The notes under the pieces: model-generated
Database searches by the model: none
Seen by the model: the letters and a program-made list of their open reading frames with translations, nothing else
Told to the model about the DNA's origin: nothing
Made by a program: the position numbers and the translations under genes
DNA from: a phage
Length of the DNA: 64,000 nt
NCBI GenBank assembly: GCA_012813795.1
Contig: GCA_012813795.1_4087.1
Direction: 5' to 3' (one strand)
Shown: in pieces, positions 2,536-46,644 of the stretch
Position numbering within the stretch: position 1 is the first letter of the stretch
Layout: every line of letters begins with the position of its first letter

Positions 2536-2564
2536 ATTATACTGCTATTATTCAGTACTGTCAA
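2536..2564 (-). promoter_or_regulatory. sigma70-like early promoter (-35 TTGACA, 17 nt, -10 TATAAT)
   Basis: plus-strand attata 2536-2541 and tgtcaa 2559-2564 (read on minus); palindrome CAGTACTG in spacer. Confidence 0.55.
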
Positions 2565-2839
2565 TCGATATAAGTACCTTTTTTAACATCACAGACTTCT
2601 TCCATCCAATGTGGATTTTCGTTTTTATCAGTGAAGATTTGTTCTGCTTCTTCTTTTGTTTCAGCTAGGACGATACGGTCCCCATCATCCAAAACACGGA
2701 TACGATAAACTTTCAGTTCTTGTTTCTGCTCAAGGATATTACACAGTTCACGTGCTTTTTCTTCATCGCACTCCCCTTCATTAGCATAAAACCAGATTGC
2801 TTTTTTAATAAGGTCACGTTCTTCTTTGGTAAAAGACAT
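2561..2839 (-). CDS. hypothetical acidic protein
   Basis: 92-aa ORF; SD AGGAAAT upstream. Confidence 0.55.
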   Translation of the reverse strand: MSFTKEERDLIKKAIWFYANEGECDEEKARELCNILEQKQELKVYRIRVLDDGDRIVLAETKEEAEQIFTDKNENPHWMEEVCDVKKGTYID

Positions 2840-2884
2840 AATATTTCCTATTATTTGTTAAAGTGGGTGTCGTTTGATATAAAC

Positions 2885-2912
2885 ATTATACAGTACTGAT
2901 ATCTTCTGTCAA
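2885..2912 (-). promoter_or_regulatory. sigma70-like early promoter (TTGACA, 16 nt with CAGTACTG, TATAAT)
   Basis: attata 2885-2890, tgtcaa 2907-2912 on plus = consensus boxes on minus. Confidence 0.6.
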
Positions 2913-3481: not shown

Positions 3482-4294
3482 TTAAATTACATAGGGTTTA
3501 TAGTAATGAATCTCATTTGCTATTGCAGTGAAAACTTTCTTATTAAATCTTTCACCATAATCACGAAGTGATTCACCTTCTACGCTTTCAATAAAGTAAT
3601 TATATACTGGTAGTCGTGCACTGTCAATACCTATAAACGATTTCATGTAAATTTGTACTAAACGATTCATACCTGAATTTAAACATTCAACATCAAAGTG
3701 CTTGATACCTTTGTCTAAGTGCTTGAATGCATTGATGATACCACGCTTGAAATCACGCTCCATAGTACTGAATAGATTCTCAGGAAACACTGTAATCGGA
3801 GACATGGATTTAAGAATGTATGTATCTTTTGCATTCTTGATGTACTCAATGAAGCAGTAGTTTACATTAGGCTCAATTGAACGGTCTGCATTATGATACC
3901 AGTACTTAAACTCGCTGTACTCTGCGAACTTATGCTGGCGTAAGGCATTACAATCCTCACACAGTGCAGTCATGTTCTCTTTATCATTACCACCCTGAAG
4001 ACAGTCAAGTACATTATGGTCTAACGTCATGCGTACAAGGCGTTTCCCTTTAAGTACATAAGGTCTGAATTTATAACGGTCTTTAGTACTGTGCTTATGT
4101 AAAGTGAATACTACATTGGATTCACCACAACAATCACATTTAAAGCCGTCACGAGACATTACATGAATGAGTTTGCGAGTATTAGGTCCAAACTCAGATT
4201 TAGTAATATTATCCACAATTTCTGATGGTTGGTAATATTTTGAATTCAGTCGAATCAATTCATCGATAGTACTCATTTTAGATTTCCTCTTCAC
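3482..4294 (-). CDS. HNH-family homing endonuclease-like protein
   Basis: CDCCG...TLDHNV...N...CEDCN HNH/zinc motif. Confidence 0.65.
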   Translation of the reverse strand: MKRKSKMSTIDELIRLNSKYYQPSEIVDNITKSEFGPNTRKLIHVMSRDGFKCDCCGESNVVFTLHKHSTKDRYKFRPYVLKGKRLVRMTLDHNVLDCLQGGNDKENMTALCEDCNALRQHKFAEYSEFKYWYHNADRSIEPNVNYCFIEYIKNAKDTYILKSMSPITVFPENLFSTMERDFKRGIINAFKHLDKGIKHFDVECLNSGMNRLVQIYMKSFIGIDSARLPVYNYFIESVEGESLRDYGERFNKKVFTAIANEIHYYKPYVI

Positions 4295-4502
4295 TGCATT
4301 CGGTGATTACTTTTTTAACCTCTATAACTCTTACTAAATGATACCCGCACCTATGGTTGAAATTAAACATGTTTACTAATGCATCAGCTTCTGTTTTTGC
4401 CCTAAATTGGAGATTATATATGTGCATAGTTTCATCGAGTGAGGCTTCACCTTTGCTATTGAAAACAATTTTACAAACTTCAAACCTTACTCGATAAATC
4501 AT
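4278..4502 (-). CDS. hypothetical protein
   Basis: 74-aa ORF. Confidence 0.45.
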   Translation of the reverse strand: MIYRVRFEVCKIVFNSKGEASLDETMHIYNLQFRAKTEADALVNMFNFNHRCGYHLVRVIEVKKVITECSEEEI

Positions 4503-4708
4503 TGAGTTTGTCCTACAATAAATTTCGCTTTAATATCACTTTTGTAACACCACATTTGTTCTTCACTAACTGTCATCCAAGAATTTTTGTTTACTTGTTC
4601 GTATGTACTATCACGTACAGAAAAACATTGGTTTAATGAATTCATAGGGGTAATTTGTACACCGGATTGCATTGAAAGAGCAACAATTAAAAAGATTGTA
4701 GTATTCAT
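4499..4708 (-). CDS. hypothetical secreted protein
   Basis: N-terminal signal-peptide-like segment. Confidence 0.45.
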   Translation of the reverse strand: MNTTIFLIVALSMQSGVQITPMNSLNQCFSVRDSTYEQVNKNSWMTVSEEQMWCYKSDIKAKFIVGQTQ

Positions 4709-4789
4709 TGAATGTTCCTTAATAGTTAGTCATCCATCTCTTCGAGATGTCTGTTCGCTTCTAATACTACGTATTCTACGCGAATGATT

Positions 4790-5320
4790 AATAACTGTCA
4801 AGGACTTTTAATATTGACGGGATTTGAGGAAGGGATTTTTCTTCCCCCCGCTGGGAGGGGAATTTGACGCTGATGGTATCAGAGCTATTGCATTGAAGAT
4901 TACTCTTAATGAGTACGAAAGCGGGTCATCCTGTTTCTCTCTACTTCAGTTTCATATGACGGTCTACACTTTTAAACATAGTGTATCTTCATTAAGTATC
5001 TATGCAATCAAATACTTAATGTGAGTACTCAAATTTTGGACGCAACTTTCCTGTACAAAATTTGATAACTCTCCCTTAGATAATTCGTAAGGTGTTATCC
5101 TTATATGTCTATCTAGGAACCACCAGCCATCCTAACGTGGTTCTTTATAGTGCCGCATTGCCGTGAGGGGTTCATAATATGCCCACATCTGACGGGTTTC
5201 TTCTGCACTTCGCACTGCTGGACTGCTCAACTGCCCTCTACATTTTCGAGTGGATCAGGTTCATGTCATCCATGCCAACAGAATTGTACAATATCATTGT
5301 ATCATGAACATCCATTTTGT
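4790..5320. ncRNA. GC-rich, ORF-poor, hairpin-rich block; candidate structured RNA or cis element
   Basis: Local GC clearly above flanks; multiple stem-loops (4826-4870, 5117-5144); no convincing ORF on either strand; closed by a bidirectional terminator. Confidence 0.3.
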
Positions 5321-5323
5321 CCC

Positions 5324-5358
5324 ATAAAAAAAGGGCTGACCTAAGTCAACCCTTTTTC
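5324..5358. terminator. bidirectional intrinsic terminator
   Basis: A-run, hairpin agggctgacc-taa-gtcaaccct, T-run. Confidence 0.6.
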
Positions 5359-5359
5359 T

Positions 5360-6322
5360 TTAGAAATCTTCGTATTCGTACCCTTTTTCAAGTACTATTT
5401 TTTTAAGCTTTTGAATAGCTTCACTATATTTTCGGTGCACAGATGAACGGGACTTAACAATGTTTCCTTTATCATCAACATATCCATTATCAGAAATTTC
5501 ACGAAGGGTTTCTGCTTTGTAATCCCCAAGACCATGAACACGCATGATAATTTCTCGTTCTTTAGTACTCAATTCGTCAATGATTTCTGTGATTGCATAA
5601 CGTAATGGATTACAAATGCTATCAACATTAAGGTTATAATCACGAGCAGATGAACTCAGAATATCCCCAAGGGTTCCGTCTGAATCTGAACCCAGTTGTG
5701 CATCAAGAGTCGTATATGCATTCTGGTATAACAAACAGTTCTTAACGTGCTGAAGCTCGATACCAGTACTCTCAGAGATTAATTCTGGTGTTGGTCGCTT
5801 ACCGTGTTCACGTTGATATGATTCATTAAATCGACGTACTTGGATGTTATGAACGCTCATATAACGTGGTAAGTACACCATGTAATTTGCATCTGAACTT
5901 TCATTATACATAGTCATATAAACGGACGTTGTTGCATATGTAATGAATTTGACATTCTTACTAAGATCAAAGGTTTTAAGTGCTCGCATAAAACCTTCTA
6001 CGCCATATGCAATTTTATCTTCAAACGGAATATAACATGTACACTTTGAAGCAACGTCAACAATCATACCATAGTTGTAACGAAGTAATAGGTCAGTATT
6101 CTTTTTTACATTAATCCCAGCACGAATCTCTTCTATGATAGATTCATTAGTTACACCTGCTGGACGTTTAATACTGATATTACTTTTACTACGAACTTTA
6201 TGTGGAATATCATCTTCAATAACTTCTGATGGTTCAATTGCTTCCAATGGATTGACTTCTTCATTCGCAAAACATTCATCCAGTACTTCTTCGGAAATTG
6301 CGTTTAAGTCTAGTTTCTTCAC
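5360..6322 (-). CDS. sigma-70 family RNA polymerase sigma factor
   Basis: Region 2-like (DLLLRYNYGMIVDVASK...) and region 4 HTH-like (ETLREISDNGYV...SRSSVHRKYSEAIQKLKK) segments; GTG start with AGGAG SD. Confidence 0.6.
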   Translation of the reverse strand: MKKLDLNAISEEVLDECFANEEVNPLEAIEPSEVIEDDIPHKVRSKSNISIKRPAGVTNESIIEEIRAGINVKKNTDLLLRYNYGMIVDVASKCTCYIPFEDKIAYGVEGFMRALKTFDLSKNVKFITYATTSVYMTMYNESSDANYMVYLPRYMSVHNIQVRRFNESYQREHGKRPTPELISESTGIELQHVKNCLLYQNAYTTLDAQLGSDSDGTLGDILSSSARDYNLNVDSICNPLRYAITEIIDELSTKEREIIMRVHGLGDYKAETLREISDNGYVDDKGNIVKSRSSVHRKYSEAIQKLKKIVLEKGYEYEDF

Positions 6323-7999: not shown

Positions 8000-8025
8000 T
8001 AAAGTAGGAGTACATTGTACTCCTA
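8000..8025 (-). terminator. intrinsic terminator hairpin (ggagtacattgtactcc)
   Basis: Perfect stem downstream of 8047..8298; overlaps a promoter-like TTGACA at 8037-8042. Confidence 0.45.
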
Positions 8026-8046
8026 TATTTCAGTACTGTCAAGTAC

Positions 8047-18696: not shown

Positions 18697-19465
<769 letters not shown>

Positions 19466-19468
19466 ACA

Positions 19469-19601
<133 letters not shown>

Positions 19602-19602
19602 A

Positions 19603-19702
<100 letters not shown>

Positions 19703-19746
19703 ATAGGCACATACGGGTCTGCTTTTAAGCTACTGATTCGGGAATC

Positions 19747-19792
<46 letters not shown>

Positions 19793-19799
19793 CGTTCTT

Positions 19800-20018
<219 letters not shown>

Positions 20019-20437: not shown

Positions 20438-22078
<1,641 letters not shown>

Positions 22079-22263: not shown

Positions 22264-23385
<1,122 letters not shown>

Positions 23386-25753: not shown

Positions 25754-25782
25754 ATTATATCAGTACTGGATAGTACTGTCAA
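25754..25782 (-). promoter_or_regulatory. sigma70-like early promoter (TTGACA, 17 nt, TATAAT)
   Basis: attata 25754-25759; tgtcaa 25777-25782; two AGTACTG copies in spacer. Confidence 0.55.
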
Positions 25783-28435: not shown

Positions 28436-29250
28436 CGCTTATCCTCGTCAGTTACACCTTGTACTGGGAAGTACAAATCACAGTCATCTTTAGGGTTGAT
28501 TACTCTATATTGTTTAACGAGTATATCATTTACACCGCTGTTGTCAATGATTAAATCCATCACCTGATTCCATTTCTGTAGATCAACCACTGATATGTTT
28601 TTACGGTACAAATCATGCCCTTTACAATGAACAAACCCAATAACTTCACTGTTGTATTTGATACATACTGTGATTTCACCTTCAACTATGTTATTAAAAT
28701 TATAATACGATTTATCATATATAAGGTAACTTTCAAGGGCCGTACATTCAGATACAGCATCAGCAAGCATGTCTGCTATTTCAATTGAAATCTCACGATC
28801 CAAATGTTCTTCTACACAGTACTGTATTGTACCAAATACATCCTCCCCGACAGATGGTGCATTGATAGCGACTTTAAGTGGTGCTGGCTTTATATAAAGT
28901 TTTGGAAACTCATCAGTACTAATGAATACAGCATCACATATGTTATGTACAATCTCTGCATATGGAGTATACAGATAGAAAACATTAGTCTCATGTACAT
29001 CTGTTTCAATCCATACGTCCGAATCAGACAATTCACTTTTATTCAGTACACGATTTGTGAATCCAATGTGAAGACAATCGTGTTCTTCCTCGTTATTAAT
29101 TTTAATAGGACAAAACATGATGTAAGGATAACGTTTTAAGTACCCGTTAAATTTACGGCGTACATCACGGTCGCAATTCATCAAGTACTTTGTTAAGTTA
29201 TCTTTTAATATCTTTTCAATACTCATTATCCGATTTCTCATCTTGCTCAT
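28432..29250 (-). CDS. hypothetical protein
   Basis: 272-aa ORF. Confidence 0.55.
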   Translation of the reverse strand: MSKMRNRIMSIEKILKDNLTKYLMNCDRDVRRKFNGYLKRYPYIMFCPIKINNEEEHDCLHIGFTNRVLNKSELSDSDVWIETDVHETNVFYLYTPYAEIVHNICDAVFISTDEFPKLYIKPAPLKVAINAPSVGEDVFGTIQYCVEEHLDREISIEIADMLADAVSECTALESYLIYDKSYYNFNNIVEGEITVCIKYNSEVIGFVHCKGHDLYRKNISVVDLQKWNQVMDLIIDNSGVNDILVKQYRVINPKDDCDLYFPVQGVTDEDKR

Positions 29251-32272: not shown

Positions 32273-34171
32273 TTAAAAGAATATATCACGTAGTAAATGT
32301 TCTATAACAGGTGCTGTCCAGCCATTACCAAGCATTTTGTACGCTTGTGTTGAACTACTAACTTTGAAGTAGTTTACATCAATTCCTTGCAACATGCAAC
32401 ACTCTTGTACTGTTAAATGACGATAGTCCACATTTCGTTTACCCTTCTCAATCAGGAAGTTCCTGTTGATATCAGGGTCTTTGAAAACGATTTGTCTTCT
32501 TGACTTATTGAAGTACTGATTCGGATCTCCACCCTTGAAGTAGTTTGCGTCAATGCAATATGATTTATCACGATCAGTATACCAATTACCAGTTAGTATA
32601 TCTTGTAATTTTGGTGCTAAAATAAGAGGTTTTGGAATAAACAACTTATCCGAGCTATACCAGTAGTAACGTTGGCGATAATGTGCTGTATAATTTTGTG
32701 AATTTATCAAAATTGGTGTCATTTCCAACACGCCATTGATATAATCCTTGAAATCTTCCTTCATCTTAACATTCTCAAAAAGAACTTTCAAGTTAGGATT
32801 GAGACTTTTTATGTGCTGGTAAATATCAACCATTGTATGGAATAACATACCACGAGGATCATTCACACCGCCTTGTTTCCCAGCAACTGACCACGCTTGG
32901 CAGTTATGAACTACAATATTGTTCGCCGTATATGTGTTATCTACTGCAACTTCAATATTGTAAACGGTTTTCCATTCTCCGGTTGTGGTGTTCGATTTAA
33001 CACCTTTTACCCATGAATATGACCCATCATCATAGAATGCTTCATCTTTTCGGTGCTTTTCTTTTTTGTATGTTAATACGTAATACGGCTTCTGATTAAC
33101 AACACGTTCTTCTATAACTTTTGTTTCAGACGGTTTAAAGTATGTTATGTTAGAATGACGACCATACACATTCATAATTAGTTGTTGTATACCAAGAATA
33201 ACATTCTTTGATGTTGATGTAAATTTTAAACAATCATCTTTCTTGTCATGGTGACCATCTGCGTCAAAATAACCATCAATGAATGCTTTCTGATTAGCGA
33301 TACTTTCAGTGAAAAGTGTGGGGTGTACTTGTTTATTTGAAGCACCCTTACCCATTTGTTCACAAAATTCAACTAGTTCTTTTGAACAAATATAGAATTT
33401 ATAAGATGTTCTTTCTTTAACAAAATTATATTTCATATTCATACCATCAAAACATGAAACCAATTCATCAAATTCATCATGAGCACAGCAAATAAAAACA
33501 CGATATTGATAACTATTTTTTCTATTTTGTCGTTTTACTTTGTAAGTCCATCCATCACCCATAAATCTACCCATGAAATACCAAAAGCTTTCACTCTTGT
33601 TATGTTGAAAATTCACATTACAACGAACATTACATATAGCATGTTCTTCTGTGAGTTCATGTGCATCGATCCATGTAGGTTCTGTATATTCACGAACATA
33701 TTGTCGTTTTTCATTATCCCACTTCTTGCTCATTTTTCTCGCATAAAATGGATGATTATCAGTGCATTCAATTGGTATATGTCCCTGACCTGTGATGATT
33801 CTTGTTGGTGCAATCTTGCTACCAATACTCAATACTTTTTGGTATTGTCCAGTGTGTGTAAGAACCATATCACCAATTTTTATATCTTTTATATCTTTAT
33901 GACCTTCATTTGTCATGATCATGGTTCCTGCTGGGAAGCAAGGAAAACCACCCATCAGAAGATCTATCTTGTCCCATTCGATATCCCATTCTTTCCATCT
34001 AGTTACATCACCCAATTGGATGATATCAGGAAAGTTAGCCTGGGATTCAGCTATAGCAAATTTATCAATTTCAGATGAGTAGTACTTTTCAACTGGTATT
34101 CCTGCACTTTGCAAGGCCATATACCCAACACTCATCCCATTGAATAGTGATAGTACACGTATCGGTTCCAT
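32273..34171 (-). CDS. DNA (cytosine-5)-methyltransferase (Dcm-type) interrupted by an in-frame intein
   Basis: Motif I (LFNGMSVG), motif IV GGFP|C...CQAWSVAG split exactly at the PCQ catalytic Cys, ENV motif, C-terminal GNGWTAPV motif. Confidence 0.75.
   Translation of the reverse strand: MEPIRVLSLFNGMSVGYMALQSAGIPVEKYYSSEIDKFAIAESQANFPDIIQLGDVTRWKEWDIEWDKIDLLMGGFPCFPAGTMIMTNEGHKDIKDIKIGDMVLTHTGQYQKVLSIGSKIAPTRIITGQGHIPIECTDNHPFYARKMSKKWDNEKRQYVREYTEPTWIDAHELTEEHAICNVRCNVNFQHNKSESFWYFMGRFMGDGWTYKVKRQNRKNSYQYRVFICCAHDEFDELVSCFDGMNMKYNFVKERTSYKFYICSKELVEFCEQMGKGASNKQVHPTLFTESIANQKAFIDGYFDADGHHDKKDDCLKFTSTSKNVILGIQQLIMNVYGRHSNITYFKPSETKVIEERVVNQKPYYVLTYKKEKHRKDEAFYDDGSYSWVKGVKSNTTTGEWKTVYNIEVAVDNTYTANNIVVHNCQAWSVAGKQGGVNDPRGMLFHTMVDIYQHIKSLNPNLKVLFENVKMKEDFKDYINGVLEMTPILINSQNYTAHYRQRYYWYSSDKLFIPKPLILAPKLQDILTGNWYTDRDKSYCIDANYFKGGDPNQYFNKSRRQIVFKDPDINRNFLIEKGKRNVDYRHLTVQECCMLQGIDVNYFKVSSSTQAYKMLGNGWTAPVIEHLLRDIFF
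32903..33940 (-). mobile_element. intein with LAGLIDADG homing-endonuclease domain (346 aa, residues 78-423 of the MTase ORF)
   Basis: Starts CFPAGTMI (block A), ends VVHN followed by extein Cys; two LAGLIDADG motifs (MGRFMGDGW, IDGYFDADG). Confidence 0.65.
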
Positions 34172-46615: not shown

Positions 46616-46644
46616 ATTATACGAGCAACACACATTCATGTCAA
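46616..46644 (-). promoter_or_regulatory. sigma70-like early promoter (TTGACA, 17 nt, TATAAT)
   Basis: attata 46616-46621; tgtcaa 46639-46644. Confidence 0.5.

Follow-up and report, generated by a model that had tools for sequence, protein, structure and literature searches.

A palindrome iterated throughout the genome of Escherichia phage A4 and in other enterobacterial phages, and its overlap with early promoters

Short palindromes are usually purged by phages, which in this way escape restriction. The operators of phage repressors, e.g., those of P1 C1, are found as copies scattered over the genome, some of them lying over promoter cores, and operator sets of the P1 C1 type comprise tens of asymmetric sites in regulatory regions. 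Here we analyzed a 64,000-nucleotide stretch of phage DNA (GenBank assembly GCA_012813795.1, contig GCA_012813795.1_4087.1; hereafter the window), in which six boxes on the minus strand had been predicted to form a class of early promoters for the host RNA polymerase, with the octamer palindrome CAGTACTG (core AGTACT) in the spacer as an extra recognition element. RpoD-like early promoters were previously predicted for the related phage CBB, concentrated in its early small-gene region (PMC5259590), and promoters of the type TTGAC/TATAATA were found around transcription start sites determined by RNA sequencing in the relative PA5oct (PMC7318152). RpoD-like promoters are annotated in phage GAP32 as well. 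We find that the palindrome is a strong, conserved and convergently distributed DNA signal, and that its interpretation as the hallmark of a promoter class was largely wrong.

Abundance and conservation of the palindrome

A 4-kb piece around the boxes at 2536-2912 was 98.7% identical to Escherichia phage A4 (Asteriusvirus, 355.5 kb) and about 87% identical to 121Q/PBECO4-type phages. The plus strand of the window corresponds to the minus strand of A4, roughly A4 261.7-325.7 kb. CAGTACTG was found 34 times in the window, where 0.59 copies were expected, and is the most over-represented 8-mer in it (z = 20 in an order-3 Markov model). Eight of the 34 copies were intergenic and 26 were located inside open reading frames (ORFs), as follows.

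355-20616: 17 ORF-internal copies of CAGTACTG, starting at 355, 925, 1088, 9150, 9455, 10639, 11114, 12189, 12465, 15240, 15548, 17084, 17817, 17852, 18792, 20327 and 20609
28817-62334: nine ORF-internal copies of CAGTACTG in the replication and nucleotide-metabolism part, starting at 28817, 30861, 35191, 38569, 44140, 45554, 50775, 59128 and 62327

Counts for A4 cover the whole genome, which was joined from eight pieces. It contains 224 copies of CAGTACTG, compared to 3.8 expected from composition, 4.8 from an order 1 and 12 from an order 2 model, and 82% of these copies lie within ORFs. The AGTACT core was found 922 times, with about 101-121 copies expected. The density of CAGTACTG peaks in early small-gene regions at up to 2.4 per kb, while the structural and replication modules carry approximately 0.3 per kb, which is still roughly 30 times the composition-based expectation. 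CAGTACTG is thus a highly iterated palindrome of the entire genome, separate from the promoter signal.

AGTACT is the only 6-bp palindrome that is enriched more than 2-fold in A4, whereas 22 six-bp palindromes are completely missing from the 355-kb genome at expectations of up to 51. Although it is the recognition sequence of ScaI/Eco255I, AGTACT is not avoided as a restriction site but 9-fold over-represented in A4. An extreme purging of palindromes together with a single palindrome at 9-60 times its expectation argues for a strong, unrecognised selective force. The palindromes missing from A4 include CCATGG (51 expected), TGGCCA (46) and GCATGC (45); GGTACC and CGTACG are likewise missing, though they have the GTAC core of the enriched AGTACT. 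In the window, 25 of the 64 six-bp palindromes have zero copies.

Within A4 genes the palindrome was found in all reading frames, with 102, 65 and 17 copies, in addition to 40 intergenic ones. The third, rare frame is the one in which the A that preferentially follows the palindrome would create a stop codon. Intragenic copies were spread roughly evenly along the length of the genes. The load is visible in the codon pairs: AGT-ACT was found 395 times (109 expected) and makes up 52% of all Ser-Thr dipeptides, GTA-CTG was found 174 times (26 expected) and CAG-TAC 106 times (27 expected). The encoded dipeptides ST, VL, and QY were over-represented 1.35- to 1.5-fold, while TS and LV were not.

The sequences flanking CAGTACTG have a preference for dT at positions -2/-3 and dA at +8/+9, of similar strength on both sides, which results in the extended consensus ttCAGTACTGaa. 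A position-frequency matrix of the surroundings of ORF-internal copies revealed no conservation past about 4 nucleotides on each side; the copies are therefore not parts of a larger repeat. Variants with one mismatch at the outer positions (NAGTACTG) were still enriched 10- to 16-fold, whereas variants with one mismatch in the central GTAC were close to expectation (about 1- to 1.8-fold). The transition variant CAGTATTG/CAATACTG was not depleted, with an observed to expected ratio of 1.16.

Individual sites of the palindrome were also found to be conserved about twice as well as background. When the window was compared with its orthologous 50 kb in 121Q (79% identity), AGTACT was kept at 59% of the aligned sites compared to 32% for all 6-mers (p = 3e-6), and CAGTACTG at 55% compared to a background of 25%. 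Between RaK2 and A4, AGTACT was kept at 32% compared to 17% (p = 0.0015). Since conservation is above background yet incomplete, the sites are protected but turn over while their number is maintained. Altogether, it is selection on the DNA itself that keeps CAGTACTG dense.

Occurrence in unrelated phages

The two motifs were counted in 50 kb of other phages and of a host chromosome.

121Q: 28 CAGTACTG and 131 AGTACT
RaK2 (Klebsiella): 21 CAGTACTG and 119 AGTACT
GAP32 (Cronobacter): 38 CAGTACTG and 253 AGTACT
T4: no CAGTACTG and 12 AGTACT (17 expected)
PA5oct (the Pseudomonas relative): no CAGTACTG and four AGTACT (17 expected)
E. coli K-12: two CAGTACTG and three AGTACT (11.6 expected)

A second group of phages was found by scanning viral contigs for the 14-mer ATTCAGTACTGAAT, which is present twice in the window.

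19643-19656: perfect 14-bp palindrome ATTCAGTACTGAAT, non-coding, upstream of tRNA-Thr
19763-19776: another perfect copy of the 14-bp palindrome ATTCAGTACTGAAT, at a distance of 120 bp

Besides contigs of the RaK2/121Q type, the scan returned a group of metagenomic contigs of 16-33 kb with a GC content of 0.40-0.43 and approximately two CAGTACTG per kb. The genes of these contigs include those for a lambda-type large terminase, a portal protein and a protease-capsid fusion, and their DNA was not similar to any phage record. With their terminase as query, prophages were identified in several Enterobacteriaceae.

Leclercia prophages (22 kb): 44-48 CAGTACTG and about 110 AGTACT
Escherichia sp. 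prophage: 17 CAGTACTG and 58 AGTACT
Enterobacter bugandensis: 42 AGTACT in the prophage part and zero or one in the host flank
Atlantibacter, related prophage: only two AGTACT

The motif-rich temperate phages reach two CAGTACTG and five AGTACT per kb. As in the jumbo phages, AGTACT is flanked in the prophages by dC at -1, dG at +1, dT at -3/-4 and dA at +3/+4, and the copies are likewise found in ORFs in all frames. The presence of the motif with the same flanks in lambda-type prophages means that it was not inherited within one phage lineage. The palindrome is a mark of at least two enterobacterial phage groups that are unrelated to each other, and its density on phage DNA is roughly 40 times that of the host DNA sampled. 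One possible reading, which we put forward tentatively, is that AGTACT/CAGTACTG may be a phage-borne mark that giant lytic phages (Asteriusvirus, Alcyoneusvirus, and Mimasvirus) and small temperate phages of Enterobacteriaceae acquired independently of each other. It would be read by an undescribed host or phage system that tells phage from host DNA, or that silences or organises phage DNA.

The ATTCAGTACTGAAT copies of the window lie in a region of about 600 nucleotides with little coding potential (19205-19800, minus strand) upstream of tRNA-Thr. The region contains a perfect promoter at 19524-19497, and no known RNA was found in it by an Rfam scan.

Early promoters and the palindrome sites on them

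We defined a strong promoter as TTGACA-N16-18-TATAAT with at most one mismatch. The window has 33 such promoters on the minus strand, which is the gene strand, compared to one on the plus strand, and 11 perfect (12/12) promoters on the minus strand compared to none on the plus strand. By chance 5.8 strong and 0.22 perfect promoters were expected for both strands together (means of first-order Markov simulations). A lax promoter scan was uninformative overall, with 97 promoters found and 98.8 expected in the window; only the matches of 11-12/12 stood out, and all its 12/12 matches fell on the minus strand. The six predicted boxes are all found where they had been placed, match 11-12 of the 12 consensus positions and have spacers of 16 or 17 bp. 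As an inventory, the original prediction was very incomplete given the 33 promoters and 34 palindrome copies. The promoters discussed here are the following.

2536-2564, minus strand: promoter TTGACA-17-TATAAT; the -35 shares its 3' end with CAGTACTG at 2553-2560
2885-2912, minus strand: promoter TTGACA-16-TATAAT; CAGTACTG at 2891-2898 abuts the -10; a 92-aa ORF (2561-2839) lies downstream
8014-8042, minus strand: promoter TTGACA-17-TACAAT, absent from the original prediction; CAGTACTG at 8031-8038 overlaps the -35, which is preceded by AGTAC
21074-21102, minus strand: promoter TTGACT-17-TATAAT with the degenerate palindrome CAGTATTG (at 21082), ending 10 nucleotides upstream of tRNA-Ser(ACT)/Met/Asn
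21673-21710, minus strand: third copy of a 38-nucleotide promoter cassette; CAGTACTG at 21681-21688, weakened -10 TGCAAT; upstream of ORF 21124-21681
22536-22563, minus strand: promoter TTGACT-16-TATAAT; CAGTACTG at 22542-22549 abuts the -10
23271-23298, minus strand: promoter TGGACA-16-TATAAT directly upstream of tRNA-Ser(TGA) (23171-23260)
25754-25782, minus strand: promoter TTGACA-17-TATAAT; CAGTACTG at 25761-25768, one nucleotide before the -10, giving TGaTATAAT
46616-46644, minus strand: promoter TTGACA-17-TATAATGTTT with no palindrome

The hexamers and spacers of the proposed extended consensus hold, while its leading dC is present at only two of the six sites and GTTT after TATAAT at four; the exceptions are 21074, which reads TATAATAAAC, and 25754, which reads TATAATAGTT. 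That several spacers carry the palindrome was borne out, with a full copy in four of the six boxes, the degenerate one at 21082 and none at 46616-46644. The promoter at 25782-25754 has a second, imperfect copy, CAGTACTA, overlapping the -35. The TTGACA of the 2564-2536 promoter contains the TGA stop codon of ORF 2561-2839. A block said to be repeated exactly was indeed found at 21682-21703 and 22543-22564, with two mismatches at 21082-21103 (none expected in shuffled sequence), but it is 22 and not 21 nucleotides long. The similarity extends to 38 nucleotides, i.e., the promoter itself, and this cassette is present in three near-identical copies within 1.5 kb.

Judged by their sequence, the boxes are ordinary sigma-70-type early promoters for the host RNA polymerase. 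They are oriented with the genes, and their location is the early region of a RaK2-like jumbo phage with its small ORFs, in agreement with what had been proposed. This part of the finding is routine annotation, as the promoter type is already known for RaK2-like phages. The "divergent" promoter TGAAACG of CBB/GAP32 was considered as a link to CAGTACTGAAAC and rejected, as the gene strand of the window has zero such sites.

The palindrome was found at promoters more often than its local density would predict. In the window five of the 33 strong promoters hold CAGTACTG compared to 0.9 expected, i.e., approximately 5-fold (P about 0.002, Poisson estimate). The corresponding numbers were 10 of 119 compared to 3.7 expected for A4, and five of 33 compared to 0.9 expected for the 121Q region. 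Two registers were used. In the first, CAGTACTG starts 19 nucleotides before the -10 hexamer and overlaps the -35 (TTGACAGTACTG); in the second, CAGTACTG(N0-1)TATAAT, it starts 8-9 nucleotides before the -10, and a gap of one base creates TGnTATAAT. Starts in the window were only at -19 or -8/-9, and this was the same in A4 (peak at -8) and in 121Q. AGTACT alone has an additional peak at -27/-30, as AGTACTTGACA. The resulting site centres, at about -37.5, -27.5 and -16.5, are 10-11 bp apart and therefore on one face of the helix. The copies at 2553, 2891, 8031, 21681, 22542, and 25761 overlap promoter elements in the way operators do.

The two-fold symmetry of the palindrome, a specificity that is graded from core to flanks, and flanks that are independent of the strand fit best with double-stranded DNA that is read by a symmetric (dimeric) protein. 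Because a protein bound at the last two centres would clash with RNA polymerase, we infer that the copies at promoters may be operators. The reading that we prefer, though at less than even confidence, is that two things are superimposed: ordinary early promoters, and an array of sites for a two-fold-symmetric factor that would act as operators where they overlap the promoters. A symmetric dimer, encoded by phage or host, would bind the palindrome sequence-specifically (e.g., as a TTCAGTACTGAA duplex). When bound over the -35 (centre about -27.5) or next to the -10 (about -16.5) it would occlude RNA polymerase. About 15% of the early promoters would be switchable through the palindrome, most likely by being shut off after the early phase, and the hundreds of intragenic copies could serve to coat or organise the phage DNA, or to mark it against host DNA.

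The genes of the window are nearly all on the minus strand. Its initial 30 kb contains small hypothetical ORFs, five tRNA genes and a sigma-70-family factor, and the part beyond carries replication and nucleotide-metabolism genes. Rfam identified the five tRNAs and no other RNA in the window.

5360-6322, minus strand: phage-encoded sigma-70-family factor with regions 2, 3, and 4
20725-21063, minus strand: tRNA array with Ser (anticodon ACT, 20972-21063), Met (20890-20964) and Asn (20725-20799)

The sigma factor is likely to drive later promoter classes and not the boxes described here. As had been noted, the tRNA array has one of the boxes immediately upstream: 10 nucleotides separate the promoter at 21102-21074 from tRNA-Ser, which is followed by tRNA-Met and tRNA-Asn. 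From their sequence, tRNA genes appear to have their own promoters without the full palindrome, the promoter at 23298-23271 being an example. The tRNA-Ser with anticodon ACT (20972-21063, minus strand) carries that annotation in 121Q as well. An unmodified A34 of this tRNA would match AGT exactly, and AGT is the Ser codon in 52% of the Ser-Thr dipeptides because of the AGTACT motif. The tRNA-Ser(ACT) may represent an adaptation of decoding to the palindrome load.

Outside the window, A4 4139-6138 is a gene-free stretch of 2 kb at the beginning of an early region. It contains 12 CAGTACTG copies and, at about 5180-5340, a run of iteron-like CTAGACGG/CTGGATGG repeats, and may function as an origin, in packaging or in regulation. 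Chi of E. coli, GCTGGTGG, was found 21 times on one strand of A4 and twice on the other, with about one copy expected per strand; the window has two copies, both on the minus strand. GAP32 has an excess of Chi as well, with nine and three copies in its first 50 kb.

Possible readers of the palindrome and known systems

Several candidates for the protein that reads the palindrome were considered. The binding site of the E. coli protein SlmA requires dG, dT, dA, and dG at positions 1, 2, 4, and 5 and a purine at position 3 (PMC3020112). The phage consensus has dT/dA at position 1 and dC at position 3 (47-64%), where dG is found in 8-10%, and SlmA was therefore rejected. The C5 cytosine methyltransferase of the phage was rejected since its RaK2 counterpart is reported to be specific for CpG (PMC3622015), which AGTACT does not contain. 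The enzyme (32273-34171, minus strand, 632 aa) has an intein with Hint and LAGLIDADG homing endonuclease parts between its methylase motifs, and its 121Q orthologue is only 286 aa long. A repair drive of the VSP type was dismissed because the transition neighbours of the palindrome were not depleted. Pfam scans of 10 prophage ORFs revealed no DNA-binding or methyltransferase domain. The only protein common to the motif-rich temperate phages and A4 is the AP2-type protein A4_405, whose relatives carry AP2 and DUF723 domains. Its family has at least 593 members, is present in 855 phage records and is for the most part annotated as homing endonucleases. A gene of the AP2/DUF723 family, of a DNA-binding or homing-endonuclease-like type, lies directly upstream of a Dam-family N6-adenine methyltransferase at A4 66334-67486, outside the window, and the same gene order recurs in a second RaK2-like jumbo-phage contig.

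A number of observations weigh against the reading with a dimeric factor and operators. Neither Pfam scans nor structure prediction identified a protein binding the palindrome, and no DNA-binding or methyltransferase domain was found by Pfam in 20 early ORFs of the window. The 92-aa ORF (2561-2839) behind the promoter at 2912 belongs to the sigma-70 family according to the A4 annotation, has only four close homologues, and is confined to Asteriusvirus; its AlphaFold model was of low confidence (pLDDT 59). A4_405 was discarded as the reader because it belongs to a large, mobile, homing-endonuclease-like family, and contigs with equally distant members have zero or one AGTACT. As 28 of the 33 strong promoters are without the motif, it is not a general early-to-middle switch. 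The late and replication regions carry the motif at about 0.3 per kb, which a repressor of early genes alone would not need. The spacing of neighbouring sites has weak peaks at 10-11, 20-21, 30, and 40 bp, and helical phasing is not convincing. Finally, the occurrence in unrelated phages without a convincing shared protein could be explained just as well by a host factor or by a cause other than a protein.

The other explanations fared worse. It is quite improbable that CAGTACTG is an added promoter element, contacted by the host RNA polymerase or by a phage-modified form of it, that defines a special early class. Strong promoters have about five times the motif density of the genome around them and hold the motif at fixed registers, the -9 register gives an extended -10 at 25761 and likewise for the degenerate copy at 21082, and the copies at 2553, 2891, 21681, and 22542 are conserved in 121Q. 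However, perfect 12/12 matches are among the 28 promoters that lack it, some 82% of the A4 copies are intragenic with no -35 or -10 close by, two registers mean different positions relative to the polymerase, and the motif also fills structural genes and unrelated prophages. The role in promoter recognition originally predicted for the palindrome was therefore not supported, with five of 33 strong promoters containing it and 26 of 34 copies inside ORFs. That the palindrome has no function of its own, being a side effect of mutation bias or of the spread of promoter cassettes by recombination, is very improbable. Promoter cassettes are repeated here, and T4-type phages shuffle genes by means of such cassettes (PMC2839356, PMC4122927), but the flanks of the intragenic copies are mutually unrelated, the sites are conserved above background and proteins are bent toward ST, VL, and QY. 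Moreover, unrelated phages share both motif and flanks, while the related Atlantibacter prophage is without the motif. We give next to no credence to an RNA signal, in which CAGUACUG in early transcripts would be the site of a ribonuclease or RNA-binding protein with a logic like that of T4 RegB at GGAG. Such a signal would suit the density peaks in early, heavily transcribed small-gene regions, but RNA does not need palindromy. The flanks are symmetric and not strand-specific, copies are frequent in non-transcribed-looking spacers and in promoter cores upstream of start sites, and the enrichment is equal whichever way a region is transcribed.

A HIP1-like origin, where AGTACT is the target of a methyltransferase and methylation-linked mismatch repair or selection makes and keeps the sites and marks the phage DNA, is unlikely. 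The anatomy of the palindrome is that of HIP1, including one-nucleotide deviations at the first or last base (Elhai 2015, PMC4390886), and the phage encodes two methyltransferases, i.e., the C5 enzyme and the Dam-family enzyme next to A4_405. On the other hand, the reported CpG methylation by the RaK2 C5 enzyme (PMC3622015) does not concern AGTACT, the ratio of 1.16 for CAGTATTG/CAATACTG means that a repair drive left no trace, and the parts of the motif-rich prophages that were sampled did not reveal a methyltransferase. A site for a type IIA topoisomerase is decidedly improbable. Either the T4-type topoisomerase II of the phage (55957-59382) or host gyrase/Topo IV would cut with a 4-bp stagger (CA/GTAC/TG) and deal with the supercoiling or decatenation of a genome that is very large or foreign. 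The symmetry around a 4-bp G...C core fits such a stagger and the preference of E. coli gyrase for dG at the cleavage position that is reported with quinolones (PMC6379681), and host gyrase would be a factor common to jumbo and temperate phages. However, the published gyrase motif is 130 bp long, degenerate and indirectly read, with the dG preference ascribed to the drug (PMC6379681); no short and sharp 8-bp site is known for these enzymes, and T4 has the same type of enzyme without enrichment of the motif.

The palindrome is of wider interest: it costs freedom of protein sequence, has been kept in three genera of jumbo phages and turns up again in unrelated prophages. The identity of its reader could explain the marking or organisation of DNA in jumbo phages that lack a nucleus-like shell, or reveal a new global switch of early transcription or a host factor exploited by phages. 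The AGTACT load is also a simple sequence signature for spotting such phages and prophages. We found no description of the motif in phages in the literature, of which the searchable part was limited.

Compared to known systems, the promoters resemble the RpoD-like promoters of RaK2-like and T4-type phages in the TTGACA-16/17-TATAAT arrangement, A-rich upstream sequence, location on the gene strand and short early genes, and differ from them in nothing essential. Near-identical promoters between unrelated small genes of plastic regions are also found in the promoter-early stem-loop (PeSL) elements of T4-like phages (PMC2839356, PMC4122927). Here one promoter, at 8042-8014, is fused to a hairpin, and none was detected at the other palindrome-bearing promoters. 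Its TACAAT -10 is in the loop of a 9-bp hairpin (8025-8005, TAGGAGTAC/GTACTCCTA) that scores as terminator-like.

The palindrome itself is similar to HIP1 of cyanobacteria, GCGATCGC, as both are octamer palindromes at tens of times their expectation, intragenic in all frames, with a 6-bp core and deviations at the outer bases (PMC4390886). In A4 the octamer excess extends throughout the genome including coding sequence, and deviations are found at the end positions, as is characteristic of HIP sequences. The phage motif differs in being AT-rich, phage-borne, depleted in the host DNA sampled and present in two unrelated phage lineages. It is accompanied by two methyltransferases, one of them reported to be CpG-specific in RaK2, and no cognate enzyme was identified. 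The long-open HIP1 question of what highly iterated palindromes do can thereby be put to the test in a fast phage system of E. coli. The SlmA site of E. coli, GTGAGTACTCAC, is a 12-bp palindrome with an identical central AGTACT, a dimeric TetR-type binder and dispersed chromosomal sites (PMC3020112). SlmA prefers dG at position 1 and a purine at position 3, while the phage motif has dT at position 1 and dC at position 3, with dG the rarest (9%). Compared to operator sets of the P1 C1 type, the palindrome is present as hundreds of symmetric sites, most of which are located in coding sequence.

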